A stretch of 64,000 nucleotides of DNA from Elusimicrobiota bacterium (GTDB lineage Bacteria > Elusimicrobiota > Elusimicrobia > UBA1565 > UBA9628): assembly GCA_016194705.1 (NCBI GenBank), contig JACQAZ010000010.1:166-64165 (forward strand), given 5' to 3'. Shown here in pieces: positions 5,697 through 59,974 of the stretch. Within the stretch, counting starts at the first letter, position 1, and the number at the start of each line of letters is the position of its first letter. The notes below the pieces were generated by a model, which was given only the letters and a program-made list of their open reading frames with translations, had not been told where the DNA came from and did not search any database. Both the position numbers and the translations under genes were made by a program.

Positions 5697-5799
5697 GGCT
5701 ACCTCCAAAAGCGAACGGCGCGCGGATTTTCCTCGTCCCGAGGAAGATGCCGACGCGCCGTGAAAGGCCTCGGGACAACTCTGGGGTCGGCCTAGGTCC

Positions 5800-5828
5800 A
5801 GTGTAGACCCGGGGCCTTGATTTGTCAA
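5800..5828 (-). promoter_or_regulatory. sigma70-type promoter (TTGACA-17-TACACT) for the 761-aa secreted protein gene
   Basis: The reverse complement of 5823-5828 is TTGACA. A 17-nt spacer separates it from the -10 TACACT (rc of 5800-5805). It sits about 100 nt upstream of the ATG and is followed by GGAGG 7 nt before the start. Confidence 0.5.
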
Positions 5829-12134: not shown

Positions 12135-12137
12135 TTC

Positions 12138-27337: not shown

Positions 27338-27849
27338 CCCCGGATTTCGTCGCCATCGATTTCGAGACGGCCGACCAAGGGGCGGACAGCGCCTGCGCGG
27401 TGGGCCTGGTCAAAGTCGAGGGCGGAAGGATCGTGAGGAGCGAATCCCACCTGATTCGCCCGCCGCGGCGGACCATCCTGTTCACCTATATCCACGGCAT
27501 CGAGTGGCGGCACGTCGCCGACAAGCCCGTTTTCAAGGACGTGTGGCCGCGCGTTGCTGAGATGCTCAGCGGGGCGCGCTTCATCGCGGCTCACAACGCG
27601 CCCTTCGACCGCGGGGTCTTGAGTGCCTGCTGCGCCGCCGCCGGCGTGCGCGCCCCCTCCCAGCCGTTTGTCTGCACGGTGCGCCTCGCCCGCAAGGCGT
27701 GGAATCTGCGGCCGACGAAGCTTCCCAACGTGTGCGAGCACCTCGGCATCGCCTTGAACCACCATGAGGCGCTCTCGGACGCCACCGCCTGTGCTAAAAT
27801 CGTCCTGGCCGCCCTTGCCGAAGGCAAGGGCGGCCTCACGGAGGCTTAA
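27334..27849 (+). CDS. DEDDh-family 3'-5' exonuclease (DnaQ / RNase T-like)
   Basis: FVAIDFETA (Exo I), AHNAPFDRGVL (Exo II) and HEALSDATA (Exo III with the catalytic His) are present. ATG 27334 sits in an ATGA overlap. Confidence 0.85.
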   Translation: MTPDFVAIDFETADQGADSACAVGLVKVEGGRIVRSESHLIRPPRRTILFTYIHGIEWRHVADKPVFKDVWPRVAEMLSGARFIAAHNAPFDRGVLSACCAAAGVRAPSQPFVCTVRLARKAWNLRPTKLPNVCEHLGIALNHHEALSDATACAKIVLAALAEGKGGLTEA

Positions 27850-29161: not shown

Positions 29162-29785
29162 CTGGGCTCTCGCGCGAAACTCGGGAAAAAAGAGCTTCTC
29201 TTCTCCGCGGCCGCATTTGCGGCGGCCCTCGTCGTCAATTATTTTGCCGACGCCTACGTCGAGCGCGTCGGCGAATTGGCCCGGCCTAATCCGGACTCAC
29301 TTCTTCCGCTTCTTCCCTTCATGGACCTGCGCGCGGTCTATCTGTGGGGCGCCGTCGCATTCATCGCGCTTTCGGTCTACGCCGCTGTCTTCCTCGAGCG
29401 TCCGCGGATTGCCTACATAGCGCGCGTCTACGCCGCGCTGATCACCATACGCAGCGGGCTCATGGTGCTGACCCCGATGCACATCCCCGAAGAGGCCCTG
29501 CCTTTGAGCGGCTCAGCGCTCTACGACGGCGCGGGCCGGCTTTTCACGGTGCGCCACGACCTGTTCTTCTCGCTGCACACGGCTTTGCCCTTCCTCGGCT
29601 TCTTGGCCTTCCGCACCGACTGGGTGCGCTGGTCGTGCCTGGCCTTCTCGATTGTGCTGGGCACCACCGTGCTTTTGGGGCGCAACCACTACAGCCTCGA
29701 TGTCGCCGCGGCCTACTTCATCACCTACGCGGTCTACCGTCTGGAGGCCCGTTTCCTCGAGGCGCGGTTTCTGTCCCGGCGCTAG
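29162..29785 (+). CDS. PAP2_C-like (PAP2 superfamily) membrane protein
   Basis: Motifs SLHTALPF (S-x-H) and RNHYSLDV (R-x-x-H-x3-D) are present. There is no ATG before the first TM helix. The first in-frame ATG is 29321; the proposed start is CTG 29162 or an unrecognised start in 29157-29320. Confidence 0.55.
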   Translation: MGSRAKLGKKELLFSAAAFAAALVVNYFADAYVERVGELARPNPDSLLPLLPFMDLRAVYLWGAVAFIALSVYAAVFLERPRIAYIARVYAALITIRSGLMVLTPMHIPEEALPLSGSALYDGAGRLFTVRHDLFFSLHTALPFLGFLAFRTDWVRWSCLAFSIVLGTTVLLGRNHYSLDVAAAYFITYAVYRLEARFLEARFLSRR

Positions 29786-31053
29786 AACCCGACCGCTCCT
29801 CCCACGGTCCAGATCCAACCGCCGGCCCAAGGCTGACCCGGCATGTCGCCCTCGGTCTTTCGTCCCACGGTCAGGCTCGCGTCGAATTTCTTGCTCAGGT
29901 TCACGGTCTCGCCCAAGAGCAGCGCCCCGCCCGGCCGTTGAGCTCGCGCGGCGTCTGCCCAGGCTTGCGCTTCGCCGCTCAGTCTCAGCCGGTCTCCCGC
30001 CGCCTTGAGACCGTCGAGCTTGACCGACATCGCCTCGCCCGCCGGACCCCAGCGGGGCGCAAGCGTCGCCGTCGTCCCGCTGGCGGGACTGCGGACGATC
30101 ATGTCGACGACCTGCCACGACCCATGTCCCACGAAGTTCGAGAACCCGCCGGTCCAGTCGAGACCGCCCAGGCGCACGACCGGTCTGCCGAAATCGGCGC
30201 TGCCGCTGAAAAACTGCCAAGCCCCGAAGGCGACGGCCGCCGCGTTCATCGGGTCGAGCGCGCTGGCCCAAAGCCGCCGCAGCGCCTGGCCGGGATCGGC
30301 CCGGTACAGCGCGTCGTTTTCCCCGAGACCGCCTGGGTAACCGCCCGGCACGGCGGCGGCGTCGAGCCGGTAACGGCTTTGGCCCTTGCCGCCGCCGGGC
30401 AAGTTCAGCCCGGCGAGGGAGAGCAGGTCGTTGACCACGAGGGGCCCGAGCCCCGTGTCGGCGGACTTCGCGCTCGAGCCGTCCACGCGGGGAGGGCCGA
30501 GCGCGACGAACGGCAGCGGGGGCTCGGAGGCCCCGGCGAGGATCGCCTCGAGCTCGCTGCCGGTGCCGCGCGGCCGGGGGCCCCCGTCGAAGTCGAACTC
30601 GGTCGGACCGTCGAGTCGACCGAGCATCGCGCGCGCGTCCTCGGCGAGCTCAGGGATTTCTCGCGCTCGCGTGGATGCGGCGAAGCGGCTGCCCCACGGG
30701 TCGCCCAGGATCGCGCCGGCCACCGCGGCCCAGCCGCAAGGGCTCATCGCGCCGGGCGGCTCGAACCAAGGGAATTGATCCGGAGGGATCTCGGCGACTT
30801 TGAGCGCCTTCAAAAGATAGGCGGAGAGGACCTGCTCTTCGGTCCCCGGCTTGAGGTCCTGCAGGACGGCGGTCAAGGCCGCGACCTCGACGGCGTCTAG
30901 AATCCTCGTCTGCGTCGGATACCCCGGATAGCCGAGGCGCCGGTACTCCCAGCCCTTGCCGGTTTCTATGAGGCCGAGCTTCTCGGTCAGCCCCGCGGAG
31001 GCCGACGCGGAGAGAGCGAGGACGATCCCAAGAATCGCGCCGATCGCCTTCAT
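29782..31053 (-). CDS. secreted Gly/Pro-rich hypothetical protein (423 aa)
   Basis: A signal peptide is present (MKAIGAILGIVLALSASASA). No recognisable domain. Its stop overlaps the convergent PAP2 gene stop (CTAG). Confidence 0.6.
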   Translation of the reverse strand: MKAIGAILGIVLALSASASAGLTEKLGLIETGKGWEYRRLGYPGYPTQTRILDAVEVAALTAVLQDLKPGTEEQVLSAYLLKALKVAEIPPDQFPWFEPPGAMSPCGWAAVAGAILGDPWGSRFAASTRAREIPELAEDARAMLGRLDGPTEFDFDGGPRPRGTGSELEAILAGASEPPLPFVALGPPRVDGSSAKSADTGLGPLVVNDLLSLAGLNLPGGGKGQSRYRLDAAAVPGGYPGGLGENDALYRADPGQALRRLWASALDPMNAAAVAFGAWQFFSGSADFGRPVVRLGGLDWTGGFSNFVGHGSWQVVDMIVRSPASGTTATLAPRWGPAGEAMSVKLDGLKAAGDRLRLSGEAQAWADAARAQRPGGALLLGETVNLSKKFDASLTVGRKTEGDMPGQPWAGGWIWTVGGAVGF

Positions 31054-32111: not shown

Positions 32112-33260
32112 ATGGACCCAAAGTCACTCGAGAACATCCCGCAGCCGACCCTGGTCACGGCCCGGGAGCATCTCGAGGAGGTCGTCTCGGACCTCAAACG
32201 CGCCACGCGCCTGGCTCTCGACATCGAATCCAACGGCTTCTACGCCTACCGCGAGAAGGTCTGCCTGCTGCAGATCTCCTCGGCGGCCGAGGATTACATT
32301 GTAGACCCCATCGCGGTCGCGGACCTCTCCTGCCTGGGTCCGTTGATGAAGGATCCCGCCATCGAGAAGATCTTCCACGCTGGGGAATACGACGTCCTGT
32401 GCCTCAAGCGCGACTACGGCTTCACCTTCGCCAATCTCTTCGACACGATGATCGCAAGTCGCCTCTTGGGGATCAAGGAGCTTGGGCTAGCCGCGCTCAT
32501 CGAGCGGCATTTCGGGCTCAAGCTCTCGAAGAAGCTCCAGCGCGCCGACTGGGGACAACGGCCTATGACCCACGCCCAGATCCGCTACGCCCAGCTCGAC
32601 ACCCACTTCTTGATCGCGCTCGCCGACATCCTCAAGGAGCAGCTCAATCTCAAGGGACGCCACGAGGACGCCTCCGAGGCCTTCGTCGAGCTGACCGCCG
32701 TCGAGCCCAACGAGAAGGTCTTCGATCCCGAGGGCTACTGGAGGCTGGCGGCCCGACAGAAGCTCTCGGGCCCCCAGATCGCCTGCCTGCGCGAAATCTA
32801 CCATTTCCGCGAGGAGCAGGCGCAATCCCGCGATCGAGCCCATTTCCGCGTCATGGCCGACGAACTCATGCTGCGCGTGGCCCACGCCATGCCCGCAACG
32901 ATGGGAGAGCTCGGCCAGGTCCGCGGGATGACGCCCTATCTGCTCTCAAAATTCGGACACGCGCTCCTCAAGGCCGTCTCGCGCGGGCGGGAGAGCGAGC
33001 CGCCCTCGCAAGAGCCCCGCCCCCGAGCGCGCCGAGACATGCGCGAGCTTAAAATTTTCGAGGCCTTGCGGCAGTGGCGGAAAGGCCAGGCTTCGACGGA
33101 AGGCGTCGAGCCGGTCGTCATCATGTCGAGCGAAGTCCTTCGCGAGATCGCCCGCTCGGCCGTCGAGACCGAGGCGGACCCGCTGGGGAAGCTGAGTTCG
33201 CTCAAGCGCGGGCGCTACGGCGAGGCCCTGGAGCGGGTCCTTAAGAGCGCGGGGCGCTAA
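32112..33260 (+). CDS. rnd: ribonuclease D (DEDDy 3'-5' exonuclease plus HRDC domain)
   Basis: LALDIESNG and YAQLDTHFL (the Exo III Y-x3-D) are present, with a C-terminal HRDC region. The start is ATG 32112. Confidence 0.85.
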   Translation: MDPKSLENIPQPTLVTAREHLEEVVSDLKRATRLALDIESNGFYAYREKVCLLQISSAAEDYIVDPIAVADLSCLGPLMKDPAIEKIFHAGEYDVLCLKRDYGFTFANLFDTMIASRLLGIKELGLAALIERHFGLKLSKKLQRADWGQRPMTHAQIRYAQLDTHFLIALADILKEQLNLKGRHEDASEAFVELTAVEPNEKVFDPEGYWRLAARQKLSGPQIACLREIYHFREEQAQSRDRAHFRVMADELMLRVAHAMPATMGELGQVRGMTPYLLSKFGHALLKAVSRGRESEPPSQEPRPRARRDMRELKIFEALRQWRKGQASTEGVEPVVIMSSEVLREIARSAVETEADPLGKLSSLKRGRYGEALERVLKSAGR

Positions 33261-34735
33261 AACGGGCCCGCGGACCGGGCCGGGGTGTAGCCGTGCAGCT
33301 CGCGCAGAGTCTTGAAGACCCCGGGGCCCGCGCTGATCTCCACGTCGTCGGCCGTGAACTGGCAGGGATGCTCGTAGCCGCAGGCGTGCGTGACGGCCAT
33401 GAGCTCGTTGCGAAACGACTGGCAGAAGCGCGCGAACCGCAGCGACTGGACCGCGGGCGAAAGGCCCCGTTGAAGCCACTTATTATGCGTCGTGACTCCC
33501 GTGGGGCAGCGGTCCGAGTGGCACTTCTGGGCTTGGATGCAGCCGATGGAAAGCATCGCCTCGCGCGCGATGTTGACCAGGTCGCAGCCGAGGCAAAAGG
33601 CCACGATGGCCCGGTCCGGGAAGCCCATCTTCGCGCTTCCGATCCACACGACCTTCTCCGCCATGCCCTCTTCGAGGAATAACTGGTAGACCCGCGGGAA
33701 GCCCACGCGGAAAGGCAAGGAAACATGATCGGCGAAGGTCAAGGGAGCGGCCCCGGTGCCGCCCTCGCCGCCGTCGATGGTGATCCAATCCGGCCCGCGT
33801 CCGGTCTGCTTCATGGCCGAGGCCAAATCCTTCCAGAAACCAAGTTGTCCCACGGCCGATTTGATCCCGACGGGCAGGCCCGTCTCTTTGGCGATGATCT
33901 CGATGAAGTCGATGAGTCCGCGCACGTCCTTGAAGGCCGAGTGGGAATTGGGGCTGATGCAGTCGACGCCGACGCGTACCCCGCGGATGGCCGCGATCTC
34001 GGGGGTCACTTTCTTGCCGGGCAAGACGCCGCCCTTGCCCGGCTTGGCTCCTTGGGAAAGCTTGAGCTCGATGCCGCGCACGCAAGGCGCTCCCGCCAAA
34101 GTCTCAAGCAGCTTCTCCATCGAGAAGCGGCCCTCTAAGTCGCGGCAGCCGAAATAGCCCGTGCCGATCTGATAGATGAGGTCGGCTCCCATCTTGTGGT
34201 AGGGCGAGATGCCGCCCTCGCCGGTGTTGTGCCAGCAGCCCGCGACCTTGGCCCCCTTGTTGAGGGCCTCAACGGCGGGTGCGGACAACGAACCGAAAGA
34301 CATCGCCGAGATGTTGACGATCGAGGGCGGCCGCCAGGCCTTGGCCCGGCCGTGGACCTCGCCCAGGACCTTGGCGCAGGGCAGCTCGAGCAGCTTGTCG
34401 TGGATCGAGGCCGTGAAGCTGACCTCGCCGTAGGGAAAGACCGCGTGCTTGATGATGGGATAGCCGATGCCCAGGATTTGATCGTCGGTGCCGAAGCCGA
34501 AGTAGTTGTTCTGGCCGCGCGCCGAACGGTAGATCCAGTCGCGCTCCTCGCGGTTGAACGGCAGCTCCTCGTGGTTGCCGGCGACGATGTACTGCCTCAG
34601 CTCCGGCCCGAGCTCGATGAGCAGGTAGCGCAGGTGCCCGACGATGGGGAAATTGCGCAGGACGTTGTCGTCCGAGATGAACAGATCGTGGACGAGAAGC
34701 GCGCCCAAGGCGGCCAAAGACAGCCACAAGAGCAT
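33257..34735 (-). CDS. FMN-binding glutamate synthase-family protein (GltB central-domain homologue)
   Basis: An N-terminal TM helix is followed by a GltS FMN domain (GAKPGKGG...; CHSDRCPTGV...). The stop overlaps the rnd stop convergently (TTAA). Confidence 0.8.
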   Translation of the reverse strand: MLLWLSLAALGALLVHDLFISDDNVLRNFPIVGHLRYLLIELGPELRQYIVAGNHEELPFNREERDWIYRSARGQNNYFGFGTDDQILGIGYPIIKHAVFPYGEVSFTASIHDKLLELPCAKVLGEVHGRAKAWRPPSIVNISAMSFGSLSAPAVEALNKGAKVAGCWHNTGEGGISPYHKMGADLIYQIGTGYFGCRDLEGRFSMEKLLETLAGAPCVRGIELKLSQGAKPGKGGVLPGKKVTPEIAAIRGVRVGVDCISPNSHSAFKDVRGLIDFIEIIAKETGLPVGIKSAVGQLGFWKDLASAMKQTGRGPDWITIDGGEGGTGAAPLTFADHVSLPFRVGFPRVYQLFLEEGMAEKVVWIGSAKMGFPDRAIVAFCLGCDLVNIAREAMLSIGCIQAQKCHSDRCPTGVTTHNKWLQRGLSPAVQSLRFARFCQSFRNELMAVTHACGYEHPCQFTADDVEISAGPGVFKTLRELHGYTPARSAGPF

Positions 34736-44756: not shown

Positions 44757-46193
44757 TCACGACTGTCTCGCCGAGGCCTGCGCGGAGCCTCGGGCAAGAA
44801 TCCTTCTATAGGCCTGCGCGGCCGCCTCGCGCCCGGAACGGATGCAGTCGGGCAGTCCAACGCCTTCGTAAGAGCAGCCCGAGAGATACAGCCCGGGATG
44901 ACCCTGCAGGCAGGACGCGATGCGCTTGAGGCGCAAGGCGTGGCCGACATTGTACTGGGGGTTGGCCTTCTCCCAGCGCTGGGACCGGCTGAATTTGGGA
45001 TGAGTCTCGCCGAGCCGGAGAATCTCGGCGAGCTCCTTGCGCGCGGTGCGAGAGAGGCCCGCCTCGTCGGCCGCGACGGTCTCCTCGCGCCCGGCGCCTC
45101 CCATGAAGCAGCGCACCATGACCTGGCCCTGCGCCACGCGCTCCGGGAATTTCGTCGAGGTGTAGGTCGCGGCGGTGACCGCTCGGCCCTCCGCGCGCGG
45201 CACGATGAAGCCGAAGCCGTCCAAAGGGTCGGGGAAGCCGGCCCTCTCATAGACCAAGGAGACCGTCGCCGTAGTGACGAAGGGGATCTCGTTCAGCACG
45301 CAGGAGAGTTCGAAATCGAGGTCGGAGGCGACGGCGGCCAGCGCGTTGGCGGGCAAAGCGGAGATGACCGCGTCGGCCGAAAAAACCGCGTCCTTGGTCG
45401 CGACCTGCCACTCGGAGCCGCGGCGCTTGAGGCTCAGCACGTTGGCTCCGGTGCGCACCGTGCCCCCCGGCAGCTGATGCGCGAGCGCCTCGACGAGGCG
45501 CGAGAGTCCGCCCCTGAGCGTCATGAACATCGTGAGTTCCGAGGAAGGCTTCGGACGCTGTGCGGCGGCCCTCATGCCCTTGAATATGCCGCCGGAGAGC
45601 TCGAGTTCCTTGAGCTGAGGGAAGGTGCTCTGTAGGCTCATTTGCTCGGGGTCGCCCGCGTAGATCCCGGCGAGCATGGGGGCCGCGATCTTCTCGAGCG
45701 CCTCGCGCCCAAGCCGGCGGCGCACGAAGGAGCCCAACGACTCGTCGAGCTCTTCTCTGGCGGCCGGGATGAACGGCTCGAGCGCGAGGCGGAGCTTTGC
45801 CTTCCAGGAGAGCAGCCTCGTCGTCAGGAAGGGCAGCACGCGCGACGGAAGCAAGGTCATCCCTTCCGGCAAGGGCTCGAGTTTGCCGTGAGAGAGGACA
45901 TAGATCGTTTTTTGGCTCTCGTTGGTCTTCACGAGCTCCCCCGAAAGCCCAAGTTCGCGCACCAGGGCGAGCGCGTCGGGCTTGGCGGTGATAAAGGAGT
46001 CGGGCCCGAGCTCGAAGACGACTCCATCCTTGGTCTCGGTCATGACCTTGCCGCCGACGCGGTTTGACGCTTCGAGGACGACGATCTCGAGCTTGCGCCG
46101 GTCCCGAGCGGCGCGTTTATGGAGCTCGTAGGCGGCGGCAAGGCCGGTGATGCCGGCCCCCAAGATGACGACGCGCGGCGATGACGAGCTCAA
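44757..46193 (-). CDS. hemY: protoporphyrinogen/coproporphyrinogen oxidase (HemY/CgoX type, FAD-dependent)
   Basis: VVILGAGITGLAAAY is the FAD-binding motif, and the overall HemY pattern is present. The proposed TTG start at 46193 sits in a TTGA overlap with the hemE stop. The ORF-track extension overlaps hemE and is rejected. Confidence 0.85.
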   Translation of the reverse strand: MSSSSPRVVILGAGITGLAAAYELHKRAARDRRKLEIVVLEASNRVGGKVMTETKDGVVFELGPDSFITAKPDALALVRELGLSGELVKTNESQKTIYVLSHGKLEPLPEGMTLLPSRVLPFLTTRLLSWKAKLRLALEPFIPAAREELDESLGSFVRRRLGREALEKIAAPMLAGIYAGDPEQMSLQSTFPQLKELELSGGIFKGMRAAAQRPKPSSELTMFMTLRGGLSRLVEALAHQLPGGTVRTGANVLSLKRRGSEWQVATKDAVFSADAVISALPANALAAVASDLDFELSCVLNEIPFVTTATVSLVYERAGFPDPLDGFGFIVPRAEGRAVTAATYTSTKFPERVAQGQVMVRCFMGGAGREETVAADEAGLSRTARKELAEILRLGETHPKFSRSQRWEKANPQYNVGHALRLKRIASCLQGHPGLYLSGCSYEGVGLPDCIRSGREAAAQAYRRILARGSAQASARQS

Positions 46194-47221
46194 TTGAGGC
46201 TCCACGCGTGTACCCAGTCGACGACGGCCTTCACGTTTTCGACCGGGGTCTGCGGCAGGATGCCGTGGCCCAGGTTGAAGATGAAGCCCTTGCGGCCGCA
46301 CGCGCGCGCCAGTATGTCCCTCACGGCCGACTTGAGCACGGGCTTGGCCGCGAAGAGCACCGTCGGATCGAGGTTGCCTTGGATGGCGCGCGCGCCGATC
46401 TTTCCCCAAGCCGCGTCGAGGTCAAGGCGCCAGTCGACGCCGATCACGTCGCCGCCGGCCGAGGCGAAGTCCTCGAGGAAGCCGGCGGTGCCGGTCCCGA
46501 AATGGATGACGGGAACGCCGGAGGATTTGAGGGCCGAGAGCACGAAACGCGAATGCGGCAGGACGCACTTGCGGTATTGTTCCGGCGAGAGGCAGCCGAC
46601 CCACGAGTCGAAGAGCTGCACGGCCTGCGCGCCGGCCTCGACCTGGGCCTTCAGGTAGGCCGCGGTGATCCGGCGCACCTTGCCCATCAACTGGTCCCAC
46701 GCTTTGGGCTGTTCGAGCATGAAGGCCTTGGTCTTTAGGAAGTGGTCCGAAGGTCCGCCCTCGATGAGGTAGCTCGCCAAAGTGAACGGCGCGCCGGCAA
46801 ACCCGATCAAGGGGATCGGCCCGAGTTCGCGCCGCGCCAAGGCGATCGCCCGGAGCACGAAGGAGAGCCCCTCGCGCGAGTCGAAGTCCTTGAGGCGCCG
46901 AACATCCGCGGCCGAGCGCACGGGGTTGTCGATGACGGGACCCGGCGCGAAGCGCAGCCGCGCGCCCATCGGCTCGATGGGCAGCAGGATGTCGGCGAAG
47001 ATGATGGCCGCATCTATCGGCATGGCGCGAATGGGCTGCAGAGTGACCTCGCAGGCCAACTCGGGCGTCTTTGCCAGCTGAAGGATCGAATACTTCTTGC
47101 GCAGGTCGCGGTATTCCTTCATATAGCGTCCGGCCTGGCGCATGAACCACACGGGGGTCCGGTCGACCTTCTGGCGAAAGCACGCGCGGACAAAGCGCGG
47201 GGCTCCCTGTAAGCTGGGCAT
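46190..47221 (-). CDS. hemE: uroporphyrinogen decarboxylase
   Basis: PVWFMRQAGRYM is the URO-D N-terminal signature. Confidence 0.95.
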   Translation of the reverse strand: MPSLQGAPRFVRACFRQKVDRTPVWFMRQAGRYMKEYRDLRKKYSILQLAKTPELACEVTLQPIRAMPIDAAIIFADILLPIEPMGARLRFAPGPVIDNPVRSAADVRRLKDFDSREGLSFVLRAIALARRELGPIPLIGFAGAPFTLASYLIEGGPSDHFLKTKAFMLEQPKAWDQLMGKVRRITAAYLKAQVEAGAQAVQLFDSWVGCLSPEQYRKCVLPHSRFVLSALKSSGVPVIHFGTGTAGFLEDFASAGGDVIGVDWRLDLDAAWGKIGARAIQGNLDPTVLFAAKPVLKSAVRDILARACGRKGFIFNLGHGILPQTPVENVKAVVDWVHAWSLN

Positions 47222-47955: not shown

Positions 47956-47984
47956 TTGTGCACAAGTCCGGTCCGAAGTATAAT
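47956..47984 (+). promoter_or_regulatory. sigma70-type promoter (TTGTGC-17-TATAAT) predicting a leaderless transcript for the Cys-rich lipoprotein gene
   Basis: The -10 TATAAT at 47979-47984 ends 6 nt before ATG 47991, so the transcription start would fall at or next to the A of the ATG. No SD sequence is present. Confidence 0.5.
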
Positions 47985-47990
47985 CCTGGG

Positions 47991-48425
47991 ATGAAGAGCC
48001 TGGCCACAGCACTTCTCTGCGCGCTGGCCTTCATTTCCTCGTGCCGCTACGTGGGCAATCATGCCGCCTGCCGCGCGCACGCGGACTCGGCCTCCTGCAG
48101 GGCCGACCCGCGCTGCTTCCCGGTCTTCGGCTGCGAGAAGGACCCGGCCCTGGCTCCGCGCTGCTCTGCCGACTGCTCGCCTTACATCAATTCGAGCTGC
48201 TGGATCAACGTCCCGAACCGGCCCGACGGCTGCATGCCCGACTTCCGCGGCGGACGCTTCAACGGCTGCCTCAGCACCGACAAGGACCCCAAACGTTGCG
48301 AGACCGTCCCCGACGACAAGGGCGGGCAGACCTGCCTCGACCACGACCCCGCCTGCGCGGGCTGCCGGCAGAAACTCTCTTTCTGCGACGCCCACCCGAA
48401 TTGCGTCGGGGTCATCTGCATCTAG
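47991..48425 (+). CDS. small cysteine-rich lipoprotein (144 aa; 17 Cys in the mature chain)
   Basis: The lipobox is FISSC. The spacing of the Cys residues suggests a disulfide-knotted or metal-binding fold. I recognise no family. Confidence 0.6.
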   Translation: MKSLATALLCALAFISSCRYVGNHAACRAHADSASCRADPRCFPVFGCEKDPALAPRCSADCSPYINSSCWINVPNRPDGCMPDFRGGRFNGCLSTDKDPKRCETVPDDKGGQTCLDHDPACAGCRQKLSFCDAHPNCVGVICI

Positions 48426-48433
48426 GCCGCAGC

Positions 48434-49936
48434 TCAGGCCGCGAGCATCGTGTCGGCCGTGCGCAGGATCTCGAGCATCGACTCGGCGGTCTTGGCGCGA
48501 AGGAGCTTGCGCCGAAGGTTCTCGTTGGTCACCAAGGATGCGATGCGGCCGAGCACCTTGAGCTGGATGACCGGCGTTTGGGCGGGCGTCAGGATCAAGA
48601 AGATCAGACGCACCGGCACGTTGTCGGGCGCGGCGAAAGGCACGGGCTTGGAGAACCTCCCCAAAGCCACCAGAGGCTTCGAGAGGTCCATGAGCCGGCC
48701 GTGCGGGACCGCCACGCCGCGACCGACCGCGCTCGAAAATTTCTGCTCGCGCTCCCAGACGACGCTGAAGACCTCGTTCTCCTTAAGTTCGGGCGCGGCC
48801 ACGACGAGCTTGGCGAGGAGCTGCCGGATCGCCGACTGCCGGTCGGCGGCCTGCAGTTGGACCGCGACGGCGGTGCCCACGACGACGTCCATGAAGGACC
48901 AAGCCTGCGGGTCGAACTCGTCGTGGACCTCGCCGATGAGCTCCTCGATGATGTCCTCGAGGGTCAAGAGGCCCACGATGCGGCCCAGGCCGTTGCGCAC
49001 GAGCGCCATATGCACGCCCTTATCGGGGAACGACTTGAGCAATTTCTCGAGCGGCTCCGTCTCTAGGACCTCGGTGAGGTCCCGCCTGAGCCGCTTGAGG
49101 TCGGGGGCGGGGCCGTCCGCCTTGAGGATGAGGTCCTTGAGATGCAAGAAGCCCGTCGCGGAATCGAGCTCGCCCTCGCAGATCGGATAGCGCGAGAAAC
49201 GCTTGGAACGGATGAGCTCCAGGTTCTCCGCCCAAGGCTTGGACAAGGAAAGGAACTTGATCTTGTCGCGCGGGACCATCGCCTCCGAGACCTTGGCCGA
49301 GCCGAAATCGAAGAGGTTCTCCAGCAGCAGCAGGCGCTCGAGCGGCAGCGTGCCCCGCTCCTGGGTCTCGCCGAGCAGGATGCGCATCTCTTCCTCGGAG
49401 ACCACCGACTCGGACTGCGCCGCGGGCTTGAGGCCCATGAGCTTGAGGATCGAGAGCGAGCAGAACGACCAGAACGCGACCGGAAGCCGGAATACGGCCG
49501 CGAAGAGCTTCAAGGGGGCCGCGCCCCAGAGCGCGACGGCCTCGGCTTTCTGGATTCCGATCGAGCGAGGCAGGAGTTCGCCGAAGACTCCTTGGGCCCA
49601 GGCGAGCAATACGAGCGCCGCGCCGAACGAAACGCCGAACAGGGCGTGATGCGGGAGCTCGACGCCGGCCTTCGCAAGGACCGACTCGATGACGTGGGCC
49701 AAGGCCGGCTCGCCAAGCCAACCCAAGGCCAAGGCGATCATCGTCAGACCGACCTGGATGGCCGCGAGGTAGTCGTCGAGGTGGGTCTGCATCTCCTGGA
49801 CGGCCAGGGCCTGGCGGTTGCCCCTGCGCGCGAGCATCTCGACGCGAGAGGCTCGGACCTTGACCAAGGCGTATTCCATCAGCACGAACAGCGAGTTGAG
49901 GAAGATCAGGAAAACAGAGACCAGCACCAAGGTCAT
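48434..49936 (-). CDS. CNNM/CorC-type transporter (DUF21 plus CBS pair) fused to a C-terminal PTS EIIA(Ntr)-type (PTS_EIIA_2) domain
   Basis: A DUF21 4-TM region (starting MTLVLVSVFLIF) is followed by a CBS pair. The C-terminal 150 aa carry SSAVGRGVAVPHGR, with the phosphorylatable His, and a LIFLILTP...LLRAKTAESMLEIL tail typical of PtsN/FruA-type EIIA. The start is set at ATG 49936. Confidence 0.75.
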   Translation of the reverse strand: MTLVLVSVFLIFLNSLFVLMEYALVKVRASRVEMLARRGNRQALAVQEMQTHLDDYLAAIQVGLTMIALALGWLGEPALAHVIESVLAKAGVELPHHALFGVSFGAALVLLAWAQGVFGELLPRSIGIQKAEAVALWGAAPLKLFAAVFRLPVAFWSFCSLSILKLMGLKPAAQSESVVSEEEMRILLGETQERGTLPLERLLLLENLFDFGSAKVSEAMVPRDKIKFLSLSKPWAENLELIRSKRFSRYPICEGELDSATGFLHLKDLILKADGPAPDLKRLRRDLTEVLETEPLEKLLKSFPDKGVHMALVRNGLGRIVGLLTLEDIIEELIGEVHDEFDPQAWSFMDVVVGTAVAVQLQAADRQSAIRQLLAKLVVAAPELKENEVFSVVWEREQKFSSAVGRGVAVPHGRLMDLSKPLVALGRFSKPVPFAAPDNVPVRLIFLILTPAQTPVIQLKVLGRIASLVTNENLRRKLLRAKTAESMLEILRTADTMLAA

Positions 49937-50009
49937 GGGGATTTCTAGTGTAGCGGGACCACCACCCCCTGTCAAGCCCGACCGGGCGCCAATTTGGTAG
50001 TATTGGCTC

Positions 50010-50468
50010 ATGGCCGAATCGCGCGAATTCAAGCCGCTCAAGGAGGCCGGGGCCATCCCGATCTCTGACTCGAGCGAGCTCAAGTTCTACGTGGACGAGT
50101 ATCGCGGCTACAAGTACGCCTCGGTGCGCACCTTCGTCAAAGGCGACACTTACTCTGGTCCGACCAAGTCAGGCGTCACCCTCAACGCGGCGGTGCTTGA
50201 GGGCGTCATCGCGACCCTCTCCAAGCTCCCCCCCGAGCCCGACGTCCTGGAAGAGAAGGAGCTCGCGCGTTTTCCCAAGAAGATGGGCGTCGAGCTCGTC
50301 GTGCGCATCACGATCTTCCGCGACTCGACCGGCGTCGACCTGCGCGAATGGGTCGAGGACGTTGACTACAAGGGCTGGTCCAAGAAGGGCGTCCGGATCC
50401 CCTACAAGGACGTCCCCAAGAGCTTGGAATTCCTCAAAGAGATGCAGAAGCTCGTCGCAAAAGCCTGA
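50010..50468 (+). CDS. tandem PC4/YdbC-like ssDNA-binding-fold protein
   Basis: Two repeats fit the PC4 pattern. Repeat 1 is KFYVDEYRGYKYASVRTFVKGD...TKSGVTL. Repeat 2 is VELVVRITIFRDSTGVDLREWVED...SKKGVRI. Confidence 0.6.
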   Translation: MAESREFKPLKEAGAIPISDSSELKFYVDEYRGYKYASVRTFVKGDTYSGPTKSGVTLNAAVLEGVIATLSKLPPEPDVLEEKELARFPKKMGVELVVRITIFRDSTGVDLREWVEDVDYKGWSKKGVRIPYKDVPKSLEFLKEMQKLVAKA

Positions 50469-50542: not shown

Positions 50543-52489
50543 ATGAAACCCCTCTTCCTTCGCCTGTTGCTGGTCTTTTCGCTGGCTCGGCCGGCCGCGG
50601 CGGGCAACCGCGCGACTCCCGAGCTTCCCGGCGAAGGCCAGGCCGTCCCCGGCGGAAAGATCGTGTCGCCCGGGACCCCTCCGGTCCAGATCGATCTCAA
50701 AGTAGCGCCCCTCAATACGATCGCGGTCGACGCGGTCAAGACCGTCGAGACACCGGCCGCCGATGCGGCGCTCTCGCAGGTCCAACTGCCGGTCCTCGAG
50801 CCGGCTCCGGGCCTGATCGTCGGCCCCAAGCCGGAGGCGTCGCCGGAATTCACGCCGCCAGCACGGGGCCCGGCGCCGTCGGTCGATGGGCAGGTCGTCT
50901 CGGGCCGCGCGCAATTCGACCTTCAGACCGCCAAGTACGCGCCGGCTCCCCCGGCGCCTTCCTTTACAGGCTGGCTTTCGGCTCTGTGGACAGGCGCGGA
51001 CAAGGTCCCGGACTGGCCCGGCAAGGCCGGCGACAAGGTCAGGCTCGACGGGAAGACCTATGTCCTAGAACGCCGCATCGGCGAGGGCAACAGCGCGATC
51101 GTCTGGAGGGCTCGGAACGGCGGCCATGACGTCGCGGTCAAGTTCATCCACCCGGCGTTCAAGAACATACCGCAATACGGCGAGGAGGTCTCGGCGCTCG
51201 AGGCCATCGCTCATACCGACATCCGCCACGCCAAGCTCCTGGCCAAGGGCGCCGACGGCCTCGTGCTCGTCAAGGAGTTCGTCGACGGCGAGAAGGCCAG
51301 CGAGCTCCTGGCCCGAGGCGCCCTCCTCCGCAGCCAGCGCGAGGGTTATATGGAGTTGGCCGCGCGCCTGATCCGAATCGGCTACACCGGCGACATCCAC
51401 CCCAACAACCTGATCTGGGAGAAATGGAGAAGCCGCTACGCCTTGGCCGACGTCGGCGGCTTCGAGTTCGGACGGCCCTGGGCGGTGCTCTCGCAGATAC
51501 TCGAAGGGCCCCCGGTCAAGAGCGGTGAGGTCAAAGCGGTGGAGTTCCTTTCCGGCCTGCGCGGCAGGCTCGGGCCAGACTCCGACGGCTGGCGGCGGGT
51601 CCAAGACGACGCGGCCCAGACCCCCGCCTTGGCCCGGCATCTCGCGGAACTATCCGCCTACGACCGGAGTCTTAAACCCGCGCCGCGGCTGCGATTGGGG
51701 CCGGCCAAGGAGGAGGCGGTCTTGAGCAACGCTTTGGTCTCGGCCTCGGAGTTGCGCAAACGCCTGGGCTACGATCCACTTTTGGTCAAGCCCCGTCACA
51801 TGCTTCATGGCGACGATCCGGGCAAGCTCAACACCGTGGTCTTCCAGATCGACCCCAATGGGATGGACTCCGTCGTCGTGAAGATCGCGGAAAAGGACAT
51901 CATCCGACATGAGCTCGCCATGCGCCGCATCGTCAGGCGCTTCTTCGGGCAGCTTTTTCGAACGCCGGGGGCGCTGGCCATCGACGGCGGGCATGAATCC
52001 TACATGGTGATGTCGCTGGCAAAAGGCTCCAAGAGCTACTCCTCTGACGCGATGGACCTCGAGCACAGGGTCGCCATGGCCATGCTCTCCCAGACATTCG
52101 GCCTTTACGACGTCAACCAGGGCAACGTGCTCTCCCTCTCGAAATCCGACGTAGCTCTCATCGATTTCGAGCAGGCCTTCGGCCGGCGCGCGCCGCTGGT
52201 CTCGCGGCTCCCCGACGAGCGCATCGCCCAAGAAATGCCGTGGGTGAGCCTCCACGAGAAAAACCGCATCGAGGATTACCTGCCCGCAATCAAGTCCTGG
52301 CGGGGGTTGTTTCTCAAGCCCGAAACGCAGGTCGAGCTGGTCCAAATCCTGCGCCAGAGCGGCTTCTCCGACAAGGAGATTCCGGGCTATCTGGCGCAAT
52401 TCCGCGCCAACGCGGACGATCTCGAGTGGGCCATACAGAACGACGTGGAATTTGCTAACTTGTTCGTGGAAAGGCGCTCCTCCAGGTGA
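50543..52489 (+). CDS. secreted protein with two tandem protein-kinase-like (Kdo/WaaP/RIO-like) domains
   Basis: A signal peptide is present (MKPLFLRLLLVFSLARPAAAG). Domain 1 has IGEGNSAIVWRA (Gly loop), VAVKFIH (beta3 Lys), GDIHPNNLIW (catalytic loop) and ADVGGFEF. Domain 2 has DVNQGNVLS and ALIDFEQAFG. Confidence 0.6.
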   Translation: MKPLFLRLLLVFSLARPAAAGNRATPELPGEGQAVPGGKIVSPGTPPVQIDLKVAPLNTIAVDAVKTVETPAADAALSQVQLPVLEPAPGLIVGPKPEASPEFTPPARGPAPSVDGQVVSGRAQFDLQTAKYAPAPPAPSFTGWLSALWTGADKVPDWPGKAGDKVRLDGKTYVLERRIGEGNSAIVWRARNGGHDVAVKFIHPAFKNIPQYGEEVSALEAIAHTDIRHAKLLAKGADGLVLVKEFVDGEKASELLARGALLRSQREGYMELAARLIRIGYTGDIHPNNLIWEKWRSRYALADVGGFEFGRPWAVLSQILEGPPVKSGEVKAVEFLSGLRGRLGPDSDGWRRVQDDAAQTPALARHLAELSAYDRSLKPAPRLRLGPAKEEAVLSNALVSASELRKRLGYDPLLVKPRHMLHGDDPGKLNTVVFQIDPNGMDSVVVKIAEKDIIRHELAMRRIVRRFFGQLFRTPGALAIDGGHESYMVMSLAKGSKSYSSDAMDLEHRVAMAMLSQTFGLYDVNQGNVLSLSKSDVALIDFEQAFGRRAPLVSRLPDERIAQEMPWVSLHEKNRIEDYLPAIKSWRGLFLKPETQVELVQILRQSGFSDKEIPGYLAQFRANADDLEWAIQNDVEFANLFVERRSSR

Positions 52490-54677: not shown

Positions 54678-57221
54678 ATGAATCTCGATCGATGGACCAC
54701 CAAGTCGCAGGAATGCCTGCAGGCGGCCCAACGGCTGGCCGAAGACCGCGGCCACCAAGAACTCGGCGAGGAGCACCTGCTCAAGGCACTGCTCGAGGCC
54801 GACGGCGGCGTCGTGCCCGAGGTCGTGCGCCAGGCCGGCGCTGATCCGGCAGCTCTCCTAAAGGGACTCGATCGCGAGCTCTCGCGCCGGCCGCAGGTCT
54901 CCGGCGGACAGCTCTACCCCTCCGCGGGGCTCTCAAAAGCCCTGCGCCGGGCCGAGGACCGCATGAAGGCGATGAAGGACGAATACCTCTCCGTCGAGCA
55001 CCTGCTCTTGGGCCTGCTAGACAACGCCGGCGCCGGCGCCAAGGTCTTCGCGGAGGCGGGGCTGACCCCGGACAAGATCCTGGCCGCCTTGGCCAAGGTA
55101 CGCGGGGCCCAGCGCGTGACTTCGTCAGAGCCCGAAGGGACCTTCCAGGCTCTCGAGAAGTATGGGCGCGACTTGACCGCGCTCGCCCGGCGCGGGAAGC
55201 TCGATCCAGTCATCGGCCGCGACAACGAGATCCGCCGCGTCATCCAGGTCCTCTCGCGCAAGACCAAGAACAATCCCGTCCTCATCGGCGAGCCCGGCGT
55301 CGGCAAGACGGCCATCGTCGAGGGCCTGGCCCAGCGGGTGGCGGCCGGCGACGTTCCCGAAGGCATCAAGGACAAGAGGATCGTCGCGCTCGATCTCGGC
55401 TCTCTCGTGGCCGGCGCCAAGTTCCGCGGCGAGTTCGAGGAACGCCTCAAGGCCGTCTTGAAGGAAGTCTCCTCCAAGGAGGGCCAGATCATCCTCTTCA
55501 TCGACGAGCTCCACACCTTGGTCGGCGCCGGCGCGGCGGAGGGCGCCATCGACGCGGCCAACATGCTCAAGCCGATGCTCGCGCGCGGCGAGTTGCGCTG
55601 CGTCGGCGCCACCACCCTCGACGAGTACAAGAAGCGCATCGAGAAGGACGCCGCCTTGGAGCGCCGCTTCCAGCCCGTGACGGTCGGCGCCCCCTCGGTC
55701 GAGGACACCATCGCCATATTAAGAGGCCTCAAGGAACGCTACGAGGTCCACCACGGCGTGCAGATCCGCGACTCGGCCCTGGTCGCGGCGGCGGTCCTCT
55801 CGGACCGCTACATCGCCGACCGCTTCCTGCCCGACAAGGCCATCGACCTCGTCGACGAATCCTGCAGCCGCCTGCGCATGGAGATCGACTCGATGCCGCT
55901 CGAGCTCGACGAGACCGAGCGCAGGTTGCGCCAGCTCGAGATCGAGGCCATGGCGCTAAAAAAAGAGAAGGACGCGCCCAGCCGCGAGCGGCTCTGCGTC
56001 ATCGAAGCCGAGCTCTCCGCCCTCAAGGAGAAATCGAAGAAGCTGCGGACCCATTGGGAGATGGAAAAGAAATCCATCTCCGCGCTGCGCGAGCTCAAAG
56101 CGAAGACGGACGAGCTTAAGACCGAAGAGACCCGCGCCGAGCGCCAAGGCGACCTCACTCGCGCGGCCGAGATCCGCTACGGGAAGATTCCCGAGCTGGG
56201 CAGGAAGATCGAGGAGGCCCAAAAGGAACTCGCCAAGCTGCAGTCGACGCAGAAGCTGCTGCGCGAGGAAGTCGACGAGGAGGACATCGCGTCCGTCGTC
56301 TCGCGCTGGACGGGAGTCCCCGTCGAGCGGCTTCTCGAGGGCCAGACGCAGAAGCTGCTGCGCCTCGAGGAGGTCCTCCACGCGCGCGTGGTGGGCCAAG
56401 ACGCGGCGGTCAAGGCGGTCGCCGACGCCGTGCGCCGCGCGCGCTCGGGCCTCTCGGATCCAAACCGGCCGCTGGGAGTCTTCCTTCTGCTTGGTCCCAC
56501 GGGTGTCGGCAAGACCGAGCTCGCCCGCGCCCTGGCCGAGTTCCTGTTCGACTCCGAGAAGAGCATGGTGCGCCTCGACATGTCCGAGTACATGGAGAAG
56601 CACGCCGTCTCGCGCATGATCGGCGCGCCTCCGGGCTACGTCGGCTTCGAGGAAGGCGGCCAGCTCACCGAGGCGGTGCGCCGCAAGCCTTACTGCGTGC
56701 TGCTCCTCGATGAGATCGAGAAGGCCCATGCCGACGTCTTCAACGTGCTCCTGCAGGTCATGGAGGACGGCAGGCTCACCGATGGTCAGGGCCGCACCGT
56801 GAATTTTAGGAACGTCCTCCTGTTGATGACGTCGAACCTGCCCGCCGCCGAGCTCAAGGTCCGCTTCCGCCCGGAGTTCCTCAACCGCGTCGACGAGACT
56901 TTGATCTTCCACGCGCTTTCCGAGACGCACCTGCGCAAGATCGTGGACATCCAGCTCGCCGCGGTGGCCAAGCGCCTGGCCGAGCGGCGCATCACGCTCA
57001 CCCTGAGCGACGACGCCAAGGACTTTCTGGCCAAGGAAGGCTACGACCCGGCCTATGGGGCCAGACCCTTGAAGCGCGCCATCCAAAAGAGGATCGTCGA
57101 TCCCCTGGCCAGGCTTCTGCTGACCGGCGAGGTCAAGGACGGCGACACGATCGCGGCCGCCGCGGGCCGCGAGGGACTCTCCTTCAAGTCCGTCAAGAAG
57201 AAGGAAAGCAAAGCGGCTTGA
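54678..57221 (+). CDS. clpB: ATP-dependent chaperone ClpB
   Basis: An 847-aa protein with two AAA+ modules (GEPGVGKT; GPTGVGKT) and a coiled-coil middle domain. Confidence 0.95.
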
Positions 57222-59974
57222 ACGCCAGCTGGCTGCTCGTACTAGCGCTCTCGCCGGTCCGCGCGGCTCAAGTCTCAACGGGCACCGCGCGACTGGTCCT
57301 CATCGAGCCCGCCTCCATCTCGGCCGGCACGATCCTCGACGCTCCGCTCGAGCGTCTCCTGCGCCTCTCCTCGTCGAGCGTCCGTTTGCTCGACATCCAG
57401 TCCGTGCCCTGCTACCATTCGGGCACCGATTACCGACTGCGCCTGCCGGCCGCGCCTGGGCCCGCGGACGAAGCCGTTTTCTCTACCATGTCGGCGGTCG
57501 CGCTCGAGGCCGAGTCCGAGGCGGCCCTGATTTTTCCGCCCGAGCCGGAACTGATCTCGGGCCTGCAGACACTCGCCGAGGATCCCGCCAGCTACCGCGT
57601 CCCTTGGACGGTGCGCACCGCGACCAAGACCTTGAGCCTCATGCAGATGCGCGGGCCGAGCGGCGAGGCGCTGGTCACGGTCCAGCTCGATCCCAGCGCG
57701 GGAGAGGGCGCGCAATGGCTGCCGGCGGTCGCGCAGTCCTATCGCCTGAGCTGGAGAGGGCGCGAGGTTTCCATCGTGCTCGTGGCCAAGCTGCACGGCG
57801 GCCTCGGGCGATTGGCGACGGTGCTGGCGCGCGAGCAAAAGAGGGGCCCCGTGCTCGGAGTGGCGCGCAGCGACGCGTTCGGCTCCAGCTTCACCGAGCC
57901 CAAGGGGCGGGCGCTGGCCGAGAAGCTTGAGAGCCTCGGGCTCAAGTACTCCGCGGCGGGCTCGGCCGAGGTCCGACGCTGGCGAGAGGTCCAGCAGTAC
58001 CGGCGAGAGCGTCCCGAGGGCATTGAGTTCCTGTCGGCCAACCTGGTCTACGCCTCCGCGCCCGCCAAGACCATCCTTCCCGACCACGCGGTCGTGAGCG
58101 TCGGCGGCATCAAGCTCTGCCTCGTCGGCATGACGCCGCCCGAGGCCGCGAAGTACCTCGGACAAGGGGGCCTTGCCGACGCGGCGGTCGCCGATCCCGT
58201 GGAAGCCTTCCGCTCCAAGGCCGTCTCGTATCGGCGGGAATGCGAGCTCGTCGCCATCCTCGGCGCGCTCACACCCGAGGCGGCGCGCCTGCGCTTCGAG
58301 GCGCTGGGCGCCGATCTGATCGTCGGCGAGGATTACGAGTCGCCCTACCACCAGGGCGAGCGCCCTGAAAGCCACGTGCACCGGGCCCGGGTCTACGACT
58401 TCGACCAACCCCTCTGGATCATGAAGGCGTGGGACGAGACTCTGAACATCTTGGAAGTCGGCGTGCGCAAGGAGGGCGAGGCGCGCTCGGTCGACATCAT
58501 CGAACGCCACGTCAGCCTCGACGAAAGCGTACCGTGGGCTCTTGGGATTCCCGTCTTCGCGCCCGAGACCTACGCGACCGCGCTCTCCACCGAGCCTCCG
58601 ATCCTGCCATCGGCGCGGCGCATCCTGCCGGCGTCCGCGGGAGAGGGCGGATTCCCGCAGATCACGGCCGAGAATTTCTGGACACTGGCGGCCGGGATGC
58701 TCGCGGATTCGACTCGCTCCGAGGCGGGCCTCTTGCGCGTGCTCCCGCTGCCGATCCAAGAGGACACCGACATCCCGGAGTCCGTCGTGCGGGCTTGGCT
58801 CTCCGACGAGGACCAGGCCGTGGTGCTCTACCTCAAGGGCTCGGAACTCAAGGCATTGCTGGCAGAGGCCAAGGTGCAGTCCGAGCGCAGGGCGAAGGGA
58901 CTTCCCAAGGGCTCCAAGATCGCCTTCACTGCCGGCGGCGTCGATCGTGGGGGAAAGATCCACGGCGTGCCAATCGAGGACCGGCAGGTCTACCGCGTGG
59001 CCACGACCCAGGTGCTCGCCGACGCGCTGGGCCTCTCACCCGGCCGCGATCCTCAGCCCGTCGGACGCACGGCCGACGAGCTGATCCTGGAGGGCTTGCG
59101 CAAACGACGCGGCGCGCAGCCTTCGGCCTATCAAGGCTGGATGCAGGGCCAGCCGGTCTCGAGGCGCGGGCTTTGGCGGCTCGATTTTCGCGACGTGGGG
59201 CTCAACATCCAGAACACCTCGGTGGTGCGCGACGACGCCTTCGACGCGGTCCCCAACGCGCGCATCCAGGGCTTCAATCAATATACCATCGGCGGCTTCC
59301 TCAAGACCGACGCGGACTATTTCTACGAGCCCTACAAATGGTCCAACACCGTCGAACTCGAATATGCCAAGACGCGCCTGCGCCCGCGGCAAGGCCCCCC
59401 CGTCACCAACACGCCGTCCAACCGCATCATGGCGCTCACAAGTGCCACGCGCCGCGCGGGCGCCATCAAACAGGCCTGGCTGGCCCAGTCGTGGGGCCCC
59501 TCATTGGGCTTCCAGTTCGACAGCGAGTTCGATCCCGCCCCAGGCCTGCCGCGCAAGCAGGTCTACAGCGCCTTCCCCGGCGTCGAGTTGTACGACGGGA
59601 CCTTCGTGCGCAAGTGGGAGCTCACCCTCAACCTCAAGCGCGATCAGTCGCGCGACCCGCCCAACACCCAGGGCGGCCTGCACACGCGCATGCTGGTCTC
59701 CAAGGACCTCGGCAAGGCGCCGGTCAACCTCCAGGGCGAAGTCTACGCCAACTATTTCTTCCTGACCCGCCGCGACACGATCCAGGACCTGCGCTTCGAG
59801 GGCGACATCAACTTCAAGCTCAAGGTCCCGATCCGGAAATACCTGACGGTCGCCCCGTTCCTCGACCTCTACGCCTTCGAGCTCAAGCTCAGGCCGCTCG
59901 CGGGCTACTCCATCATGACCGGGATCTCGATCGGCTTCTCGCGTCTCTGGAAGCCGCAGTATGAGAGCTTCTAG
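57218..59974 (+). CDS. large secreted protein (918 aa) with a C-terminal beta-barrel-like region ending in an aromatic residue; putative outer-membrane protein
   Basis: A TTG start sits in a TTGA overlap with the clpB stop. A signal peptide is present ([19 protein letters not shown]). The C-terminus ...[13 protein letters not shown] fits the terminal-Phe OMP signature, and the last 350 aa have alternating hydrophobic residues. Confidence 0.6.

Follow-up and report, generated by a model that had tools for sequence, protein, structure and literature searches.

A CNNM-CBS membrane protein with a PtsN-like EIIA tail and a conserved putative phosphorylation site in Elusimicrobiota and other phyla

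In the present study, we analyzed a stretch of 64,000 nucleotides from an Elusimicrobiota bacterium (GenBank assembly GCA_016194705.1, contig JACQAZ010000010.1, positions 166 to 64,165; hereafter, the window), in which a gene on the minus strand (48434..49936) encodes a protein that joins a CNNM/DUF21 transmembrane domain and a CBS pair to a C-terminal PTS_EIIA_2 domain of the phosphotransferase system (PTS). The complete coding sequence is one uninterrupted open reading frame (ORF) of 500 amino acids plus a stop codon, which runs from an ATG at 49936 to the stop at 48434-48436 and is supported by its Pfam domains and by 120 homologs of about 500 amino acids. With moderate confidence, we propose that the product belongs to the CNNM/CorB family and exports cations across the inner membrane as a homodimer, an activity that would be tuned by HPr-type phosphorylation of H412 in its PtsN-like EIIA tail. 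Literature searches returned no description of a CNNM+EIIA, DUF21+PTS_EIIA_2, or EIIANtr-fusion architecture, in agreement with the original prediction made from the DNA alone, which was not aware of DUF21-CBS-EIIA_2 as a characterized arrangement. Nobody appears to have studied this fusion; the protein is uncharacterized, is built from known kinds of module, and does not constitute a new category.

A Pfam scan placed CNNM/DUF21 (PF01595) at residues 5-198 (E 1.1e-38, 133 bits against a cut-off of 28.4), CBS (PF00571) at residues 284-334 (35.4 bits, cut-off 24), and PTS_EIIA_2 (PF00359) at residues 357-492 (E 1.4e-25, 90.4 bits, cut-off 27), and at E <= 0.1 found no CorC_HlyC (PF03471) in the protein. 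The scan confirmed the combination that had been predicted, namely, DUF21, a CBS pair, and PTS_EIIA_2 in the absence of CorC_HlyC, including the match of the C-terminal 150 residues to the PTS_EIIA_2 model. On the minus strand of the window, the transmembrane domain occupies 49343..49924 and has MtCorB (7m1t) as its best solved relative; it is followed by an acidic helical linker (residues about 176-210, 49307..49411), the position of which matches that of the CorB acidic helical bundle, by the CBS pair including R249 (residues about 215-338, 48923..49294; Pfam CBS and Foldseek), and by the EIIA_2 domain (residues about 346-500, 48437..48901; Pfam, PDB matches, Foldseek, and BLASTP). The EIIA_2 domain takes the place in which CorB/CorC proteins have CorC_HlyC. 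The junction lies directly after the conserved end of the second CBS repeat, CBS2 (…EELIGEVHDEFD, residues 331-342; motif GE(V/I)xDEFD), at which the closest non-fused relatives run on into CorC_HlyC-type tails.

Models from NCBIfam were split along the protein, with those for PaeA, GldE, and CorC matching residues 1 to about 345 and those for PtsN and the EIIA domain of FruA matching residues about 353-494, and all of these matches were far below the equivalog cut-offs. Assignment as an equivalog of the polyamine exporter PaeA was rejected on this basis (134 bits against a cut-off of 500). In sequence comparisons with solved structures, the N-terminal two thirds best matched the archaeal Mg2+ transporter MtCorB (7m1t, E 3e-23), and the tail best matched PtsN proteins (3urr, 4gqx, 2a0j, and 1a6j; E 4e-17 to 1.5e-13). 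An AlphaFold2 monomer model built from 121 sequences had a mean predicted local distance difference test score (pLDDT) of 86, with every domain confident and the linkers 176-210 and 336-343 poor; the acidic linker, at a pLDDT below 50 in this monomer, aligns with MtCorB residues about 160-195, and the acidic helical bundle of MtCorB is a dimeric element (PMC8242095). When the model was compared with the PDB using Foldseek, the top match was again MtCorB 7m1t (E 1.5e-18), the CBS pair resembled CorC/CNNM CBS-pair structures (template-modeling [TM] score about 0.84-0.89), and the tail superimposed on E. coli IIA-Ntr 1a6j (TM score 0.86-0.92, root-mean-square deviation [rmsd] 1.6 A) and on 3urr (TM score 0.89, rmsd 1.4 A), such that residues 346-500 are wholly explained by the EIIA fold.

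The tail is 33% identical to E. coli PtsN (BLASTP, E 4e-20), and the phospho-His context GRGVAVPHGR, to which the original prediction had drawn attention, is intact at residues 405-414. In a pairwise alignment, H412, the predicted phosphorylation site (codon CAC, 48701..48703 on the minus strand), corresponds to the phosphorylated His73 of PtsN, R396 to the active-site Arg57, and Q458 to His120. In 121 close sequences (57-83% identity), H412, R396, and R414 are all invariant, as is Gln at position 458. Each of the three residues is likewise kept in all 116 members of a mostly Planctomycetota-type set (34-41% identity), in which position 458 is Gln in 77 and His in 39. In 41 diverse representatives that were drawn from 50%-identity clusters and reach down to 29% identity, the counts are 39/41 for H412, 40/41 for R396, and 38/41 for R414, with Gln at position 458 in 24 and His in 14. 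Over 270 sequences, some as low as 29% in identity, the His-Arg pair and the motif GxGxAxPH(G/A)R hardly vary, and the site is under strong purifying selection; because the pair has been kept over such divergence, the phospho-site is probably used, and it is from this conservation that we infer phosphorylation.

Concerning the class of the tail, which had been called EIIA(Ntr), the likeness to PtsN stood by both fold and sequence, but equivalence to PtsN did not: the PtsN model TIGR01419 gave 62.1 bits (cut-off 138.7) and NF008145 gave 59.2 bits (cut-off 221), and the fruA EIIA domain model, at 68.6 bits (cut-off 103.5), scored slightly above TIGR01419. The tail is a member of PTS_EIIA_2 by model score, fold, and phospho-site, and PtsN is its closest likeness, yet it is not a PtsN equivalog. 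When used alone as a query, the EIIA domain returned almost only fragments of the same family, which said little on its origin.

The fusion is not confined to the window. A search over 5.8 billion proteins gave 496 matches, and the best 120 of these 496, at 487-515 amino acids and 57-83% identity, carried PF01595 and PF00359 in 120/120 cases and PF00571 in 119/120; where named, they came from metagenome-assembled genomes of Elusimicrobia/Elusimicrobiota. In a search of one genome per GTDB species, matches extended through residues 491-500 only in ten Elusimicrobia loci (33-73% identity), which include Elusimicrobiaceae and Candidatus Elusimicrobium euhamitermitis, and every other match ended at about residue 345. 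When 1.84 billion cluster representatives were scanned exhaustively with HMMER, about 45 clusters (50% identity) were colinear over residues 1 to about 495 and reached down to 29% identity, with Planctomycetota, Treponema sp., and Rectinemataceae among the named members of distant clusters. A profile made from distant members returned another 120 three-domain proteins of 494-532 amino acids, which, where named, belonged to Planctomycetes/Planctomycetota, Pirellulales, and Verrucomicrobiae. With more than 230 distinct homologs of about 500 amino acids that have the CNNM-CBS-EIIA architecture, the fusion forms a large family that spans at least four phyla and is common in several little-studied ones; it is neither rare nor exceptional. 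Database entries label its members as 'CNNM domain-containing protein' or, in the case of JGI, as 'CBS domain containing-hemolysin-like protein/mannitol/fructose-specific phosphotransferase system IIA component (Ntr-type)'.

The same comparative data bear on whether the gene is real. A truncated corB and an adjacent ptsN may, in principle, be joined by a sequencing frameshift or a misassembly, and nothing was found in favor of such an artifact. Independent assemblies yielded the 120 homologs of 487-515 amino acids, the further 120 from other phyla had all three domains, the approximately 45 cluster representatives were colinear to residue about 495, and the ten Elusimicrobia genomes in GTDB matched through residues 491-500. 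We consider these findings to exclude an artifact, the probability of which is negligible, and the expectation of a single gene, rather than two that are separated by a frameshift or stop, was borne out by hundreds of colinear homologs of about 500 amino acids.

The transporter module retains the elements expected of its family. The pi-helix motif of the G-E-x-x-P-K type in the third transmembrane helix (TM3) is present as G119-E120-L-L-P123-R124; E120 and P123 were found in 41/41 representatives, and position 124 was Lys in 35 and Arg in 6. N14, E21, Q61, T65, E120, and P123 were invariant in the 41 diverse representatives. R249, which was invariant in 121 close and 116 distant sequences, is aligned to Arg235 of MtCorB; this Arg binds ATP and is the one replaced in 7m1u (R235L).

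According to the mechanism that we propose, an HPr/NPr-type phosphocarrier in the cytoplasm, which would receive its phosphoryl group from phosphoenolpyruvate (PEP) through enzyme I (EI), would reversibly phosphorylate His412. The phosphorylation state would then alter the packing of the tail on the CBS pair, or on its twin in the dimer, by which the open/closed equilibrium, namely, the CBS/Mg-ATP-controlled gating of the DUF21 dimer, would be shifted. As an outcome, the export of divalent cations, probably Mg2+, would track a PEP/pyruvate-type metabolic state besides Mg-ATP. The occurrence of phosphorylation, the identity of the donor, the direction of the effect, and the substrate are what we infer in this scheme. 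The mechanism is reasonable because of three precedents. The first concerns CNNM/CorB tails acting on the CBS pair: the C-terminal domain varies by lineage, the CorC_HlyC tail of MtCorB lies against CBS2 in hydrogen-deuterium exchange, and the CNBH tail of human CNNMs promotes CBS dimerization (PMC8242095). The second is LacS, in which a fused EIIA(Glc)-like domain is phosphorylated by HPr and modulates transport (PMC10710835), and the third is the E. coli K+/H+ antiporter YcgO, which is bound and inhibited by unphosphorylated PtsN through its CorC_HlyC domain, with phosphorylation weakening the binding (PMC11808508). The module that has been lost in the fusion, CorC_HlyC, is a docking site for the module that has been gained, a PtsN-like EIIA, and the docking of PtsN on CorC_HlyC suggests an old functional link between the two modules.

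Several observations weigh against this proposal. Regarding the ion site, the Mg2+ ligands of TpCorC are Ser43, Ser47, Asn90, Gly129, and Glu130 (PMC7875539), and only two of the five are kept in the fusion (G119 and E120), the TM1 and TM2 ligands Ser43, Ser47, and Asn90 being replaced by N14, V18, and L64/A68, the last of which lies in TM2 and is alignment-dependent. The closest CorC_HlyC-tailed relatives, from Bacteroidota and Bacillales, have the same N/V/Q-x-G-x-T pattern, and for this reason the change in the ion site is regarded as a trait of the subfamily; as judged by these alignments, the membrane domain belongs to a populous CNNM subfamily with an ion site unlike that of the crystallized CorB/CorC proteins. 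We take the Mg2+ exporter MpfA of Firmicutes to be a member of the same subfamily. The divalent-cation transporter that had been predicted is well founded with respect to CNNM family membership, but the substrate was overstated: because three of the five TpCorC ligands are replaced, the substrate is uncertain and may differ, and 'Mg2+/Co2+' would be a family-level assignment only. In the AlphaFold2 model, the predicted TM score (pTM) of 0.42 left the domain arrangement undefined, with no confident inter-domain geometry. The second active-site His of EIIA_2, PtsN His120, is Gln458 in the fusion, and Gln occupies this position in about two thirds of the family. Searches of the vicinity also yielded no PTS partners: no gene for EI, HPr/NPr, HPrK, RapZ, or RpoN was found in the 64 kb of the window or in the +/-10-kb flanks of 10 Elusimicrobia homologs, and no PTS gene was found near two Planctomycetota-type homologs.

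The search for a phosphodonor covered the window and the flanks of the homologs. Queries with E. coli HPr, NPr, PtsI, Crr, RapZ, and RpoN using phmmer gave no match in six-frame ORFs of the window and the 10 Elusimicrobia loci; with PtsN as the query, only the fusion gene itself matched in this ORF set. Pfam scans of about 50 genes in the window revealed no PTS gene besides the EIIA domain of the fusion. A different reading of the tail draws on these results, namely, that it is never phosphorylated and serves as a structural, dimerization, or ligand/partner-binding module that modulates the CBS pair, and would in this respect be comparable to the CNBH of CNNMs in eukaryotes or to the cytoplasmic domain of Band 3/SLC4, which has the EIIA fold. 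The lack of PTS genes in the window and beside the homologs examined, Gln458 in place of His120, and a weak, sub-threshold Pfam Band_3_cyto match at residues 413-489 (21.9 bits against a cut-off of 34.3) are all in line with it, as is the ability of CNNM C-terminal domains to work without covalent modification (PMC8242095). A mere scaffold, however, is not expected to retain a nearly invariant His-Arg pair within GxGxAxPH(G/A)R, and we regard a tail of this type as unlikely, at roughly one chance in four.

The phosphorylation of H412 presupposes a donor, and a candidate plausibly exists in at least some of the carrier phyla. Planctomycetes and their relatives have been reported to possess a 'regulatory' EI/HPr chain without PTS permeases (PMC2405797), and Endomicrobiaceae within Elusimicrobiota have a mannose-type PTS (PMC11257099). 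The link to a nitrogen PTS that the original prediction had drawn is unlikely because EI-Ntr (ptsP) has been reported from Proteobacteria exclusively (PMC2405797), while the EI/HPr chain reported for the carrier phyla is of another, 'regulatory' kind; in the window, searches found neither rpoN nor ptsP, npr, or ptsH. Several phyla keep phosphorelays of the EI/HPr type without a sugar permease, and few outputs of such phosphorelays are known in the PTS field; the fusion, as a membrane protein that is widespread and has kept its EIIA phospho-site, is a concrete candidate for one of their targets. We tentatively suggest, with less confidence than we place in the mechanism itself, that in phyla lacking PTS permeases (Planctomycetota, Elusimicrobiota, Verrucomicrobiota, and some Spirochaetota), the regulatory PTS, seemingly an 'orphan', may have a direct, hard-wired output in which phosphorylated HPr (HPr~P) phosphorylates the EIIA tail and the efflux of Mg2+ or another cation is gated by the PEP/pyruvate ratio. 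If this is true, it would be the first covalent switch between the PTS and a cation transporter and a cis version of the interaction between PtsN and the CorC_HlyC domain of YcgO in E. coli. A CNNM tail with a defined, switchable phosphorylation site would also be a tractable handle on the control of the CBS pair and gating by the tail.

Information may also flow in the opposite direction, with the protein acting as a 'trigger transporter' that signals the cation or Mg-ATP status to the PTS. Depending on its state, the CBS pair would expose or hide the EIIA tail, which would thereby drain or spare HPr~P, with altered activity of other targets that are controlled by HPr or EIIA. The conserved phospho-site, the ATP-binding Arg retained in the CBS pair, and the purely regulatory PTS reported from the phyla concerned (PMC2405797) are compatible with signaling of this type. 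We consider it improbable because the fully conserved transport motifs of the membrane domain speak for a functional transporter and against a protein that only senses. Reverse signaling and the regulation of transport by the tail are not mutually exclusive.

With respect to the gene itself, the G+C content at the third codon position (GC3) is 0.89, which is the pattern of real genes in this window of 65% G+C, and long ORFs on the opposite strand across the gene have an antisense codon-position pattern (0.88 at the first position, GC1, and 0.65 at GC3). The mechanical limit of the ORF is a TTG at 50083, which was rejected as a start codon; its translation is unlikely because the extension overlaps a divergent gene (50010-50468), because homologs of about 500 amino acids align from residue 1 of the ATG form, and because a promoter-like site falls inside the extension, just upstream of the ATG. 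This site, a sigma-70-like candidate on the minus strand (TTGACA-17-TACACT, 49947..49975), has 10/12 matches in a consensus scan that yielded 3 sites in the region, compared with 0.3 expected on the basis of shuffled sequence, and is a pattern match only. Since its -10 element ends 11 nt ahead of the ATG, the leader would be very short or absent, and together with the lack of an evident Shine-Dalgarno sequence before the ATG, this suggests a leaderless or near-leaderless mRNA with a leader of at most about 11 nt. Neither a terminator-like site nor an Rfam element was associated with the gene. Control by an Mg2+ riboswitch or another RNA leader was rejected, the sole match at the Rfam gathering threshold in the window being a tRNA and the predicted leader being this short.

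The fusion gene is monocistronic and has no operon partners, with a convergent neighbor on one side and a divergent neighbor on the other. Downstream, the order is a convergent gene for a Cys-rich putative lipoprotein, DUF4230, hemE, and a hemG/Y-like gene; on the upstream side, a PC4-like gene in divergent orientation is followed by a kinase-like gene, ctp, and clpB. Conservation of hemE, ctp, and the PC4-like gene as neighbors is confined to close relatives, and distant homologs are found in unrelated neighborhoods. The lipoprotein gene (47964-48425, +), separated from the fusion gene by 8 bp between stop codons, encodes a signal/lipobox-like sequence (MKSLATALLCALAFISSC…) and has neither a Pfam family nor a homolog in the ten related loci. 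The PC4-like gene (50010-50468, +) encodes a 152-amino-acid protein with two stretches of PC4 (PF02229, single-stranded DNA-binding transcriptional coactivator p15), and its divergent adjacency to the fusion gene is retained in the related Elusimicrobia loci L001-L004. The kinase-like protein (50543-52489, +; 648 amino acids) has an N-terminal signal-like sequence and a weak, sub-threshold protein-kinase match (22.9 bits against 31.7), with a homolog in only one of the ten Elusimicrobia loci (L014, 46% identity). The longest ORF of the protoporphyrinogen-oxidase-like gene (44757-46409, -) overlaps the 3' end of hemE (46190-47221, -) by about 220 bp. The N-terminal 80 or so residues of this ORF are rich in Arg and Pro, and its true start is probably downstream because the Amino_oxidase match begins at residue 87.

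Other observations concern genes away from the fusion. In a locus on a 4.5-Mb contig (L083), a stand-alone EIIA_2 protein (P0152, 10001-10468), 42% identical to the fused tail, is encoded by a gene that runs into the beginning of a gene for a sodium:solute symporter (SSF; 10465-12207), which represents another pairing of an EIIA with a transporter, in an apparent operon. Within the window, an ammonium transporter (Amt) gene (27849-29156, +) and a glutamate-synthase-domain gene (33257-34735, -) are located at a distance of about 15-20 kb from the fusion gene; a PII (GlnB) gene was not detected beside amt, and the adjacent 125-amino-acid ORF (26960-27337) has no Pfam match. ORFs of 918 (57218-59974, +), 805 (3411-5828, -), and 423 amino acids (29782-31053, -) have coding-type GC3 and no Pfam match at E <= 1e-6, and the 918-amino-acid protein has a 46%-identical homolog in L004 that is likewise positioned after clpB. 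A 108-amino-acid ORF (1006-1332, +), also with coding-type GC3 and no Pfam match, is inserted between nusG and rplK, which is unusual in the otherwise conserved nusG-rplK-rplA cluster.

Among known systems, the prokaryotic CorB/CorC proteins (TC 1.A.112; MtCorB 7m1t, TpCorC 7cff/7cfh) share with the fusion the DUF21 domain, acidic linker, and CBS pair as well as the TM3 G-E-x-x-P-K/R motif and the ATP-binding Arg (R249 in the fusion, R235 in MtCorB), and MtCorB is the best match in sequence and fold for residues 1 to about 340. The fusion differs from them by lacking the CorC_HlyC tail and by having N14, V18, and L64/A68 for S43, S47, and N90 of TpCorC. Based on its membrane domain, CBS pair, and TM3 motif, the fusion is a member of the CNNM/CorB superfamily, but does not have the architecture of prokaryotic CorB/CorC. 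The eukaryotic CNNM1-4 proteins have the same DUF21-CBS core with a lineage-specific C-terminal CNBH that influences CBS dimerization (PMC8242095); however, the fold of CNBH is different and no phosphorelay is involved. In Band 3/SLC4, an EIIA_2-like fold is joined to an ion transporter, as in the fusion, whereas that domain is N-terminal, its His is not phosphorylated, the transporter family is unrelated, and the match of the fusion is below the Pfam threshold.

Two further parallels involve a PTS domain. The tail of the fusion has the fold of E. coli PtsN, which acts in trans on ion transporters, above all YcgO/CvrA, and keeps its phospho-His and Arg, and the same two types of module, EIIA and CorC_HlyC, meet in PtsN-YcgO as in the fusion family (PMC11808508). 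In the fusion, however, the EIIA is covalent and replaces CorC_HlyC instead of binding to it, and the transporter is a CNNM, not a CPA1, protein; the tail is also not a PtsN equivalog, has no rpoN context in the window, and has Gln for His120. LacS of Streptococcus/Lactobacillus is likewise a secondary transporter with a covalent C-terminal EIIA domain of the PTS, but its tail is of the EIIA(Glc) class, which is another fold family, its transporter is a GPH sugar transporter, and its hosts have full sugar PTSs. Taken together, these comparisons suggest that the fusion would work like the IIA domain of LacS or as a covalent form of the PtsN-YcgO pair.

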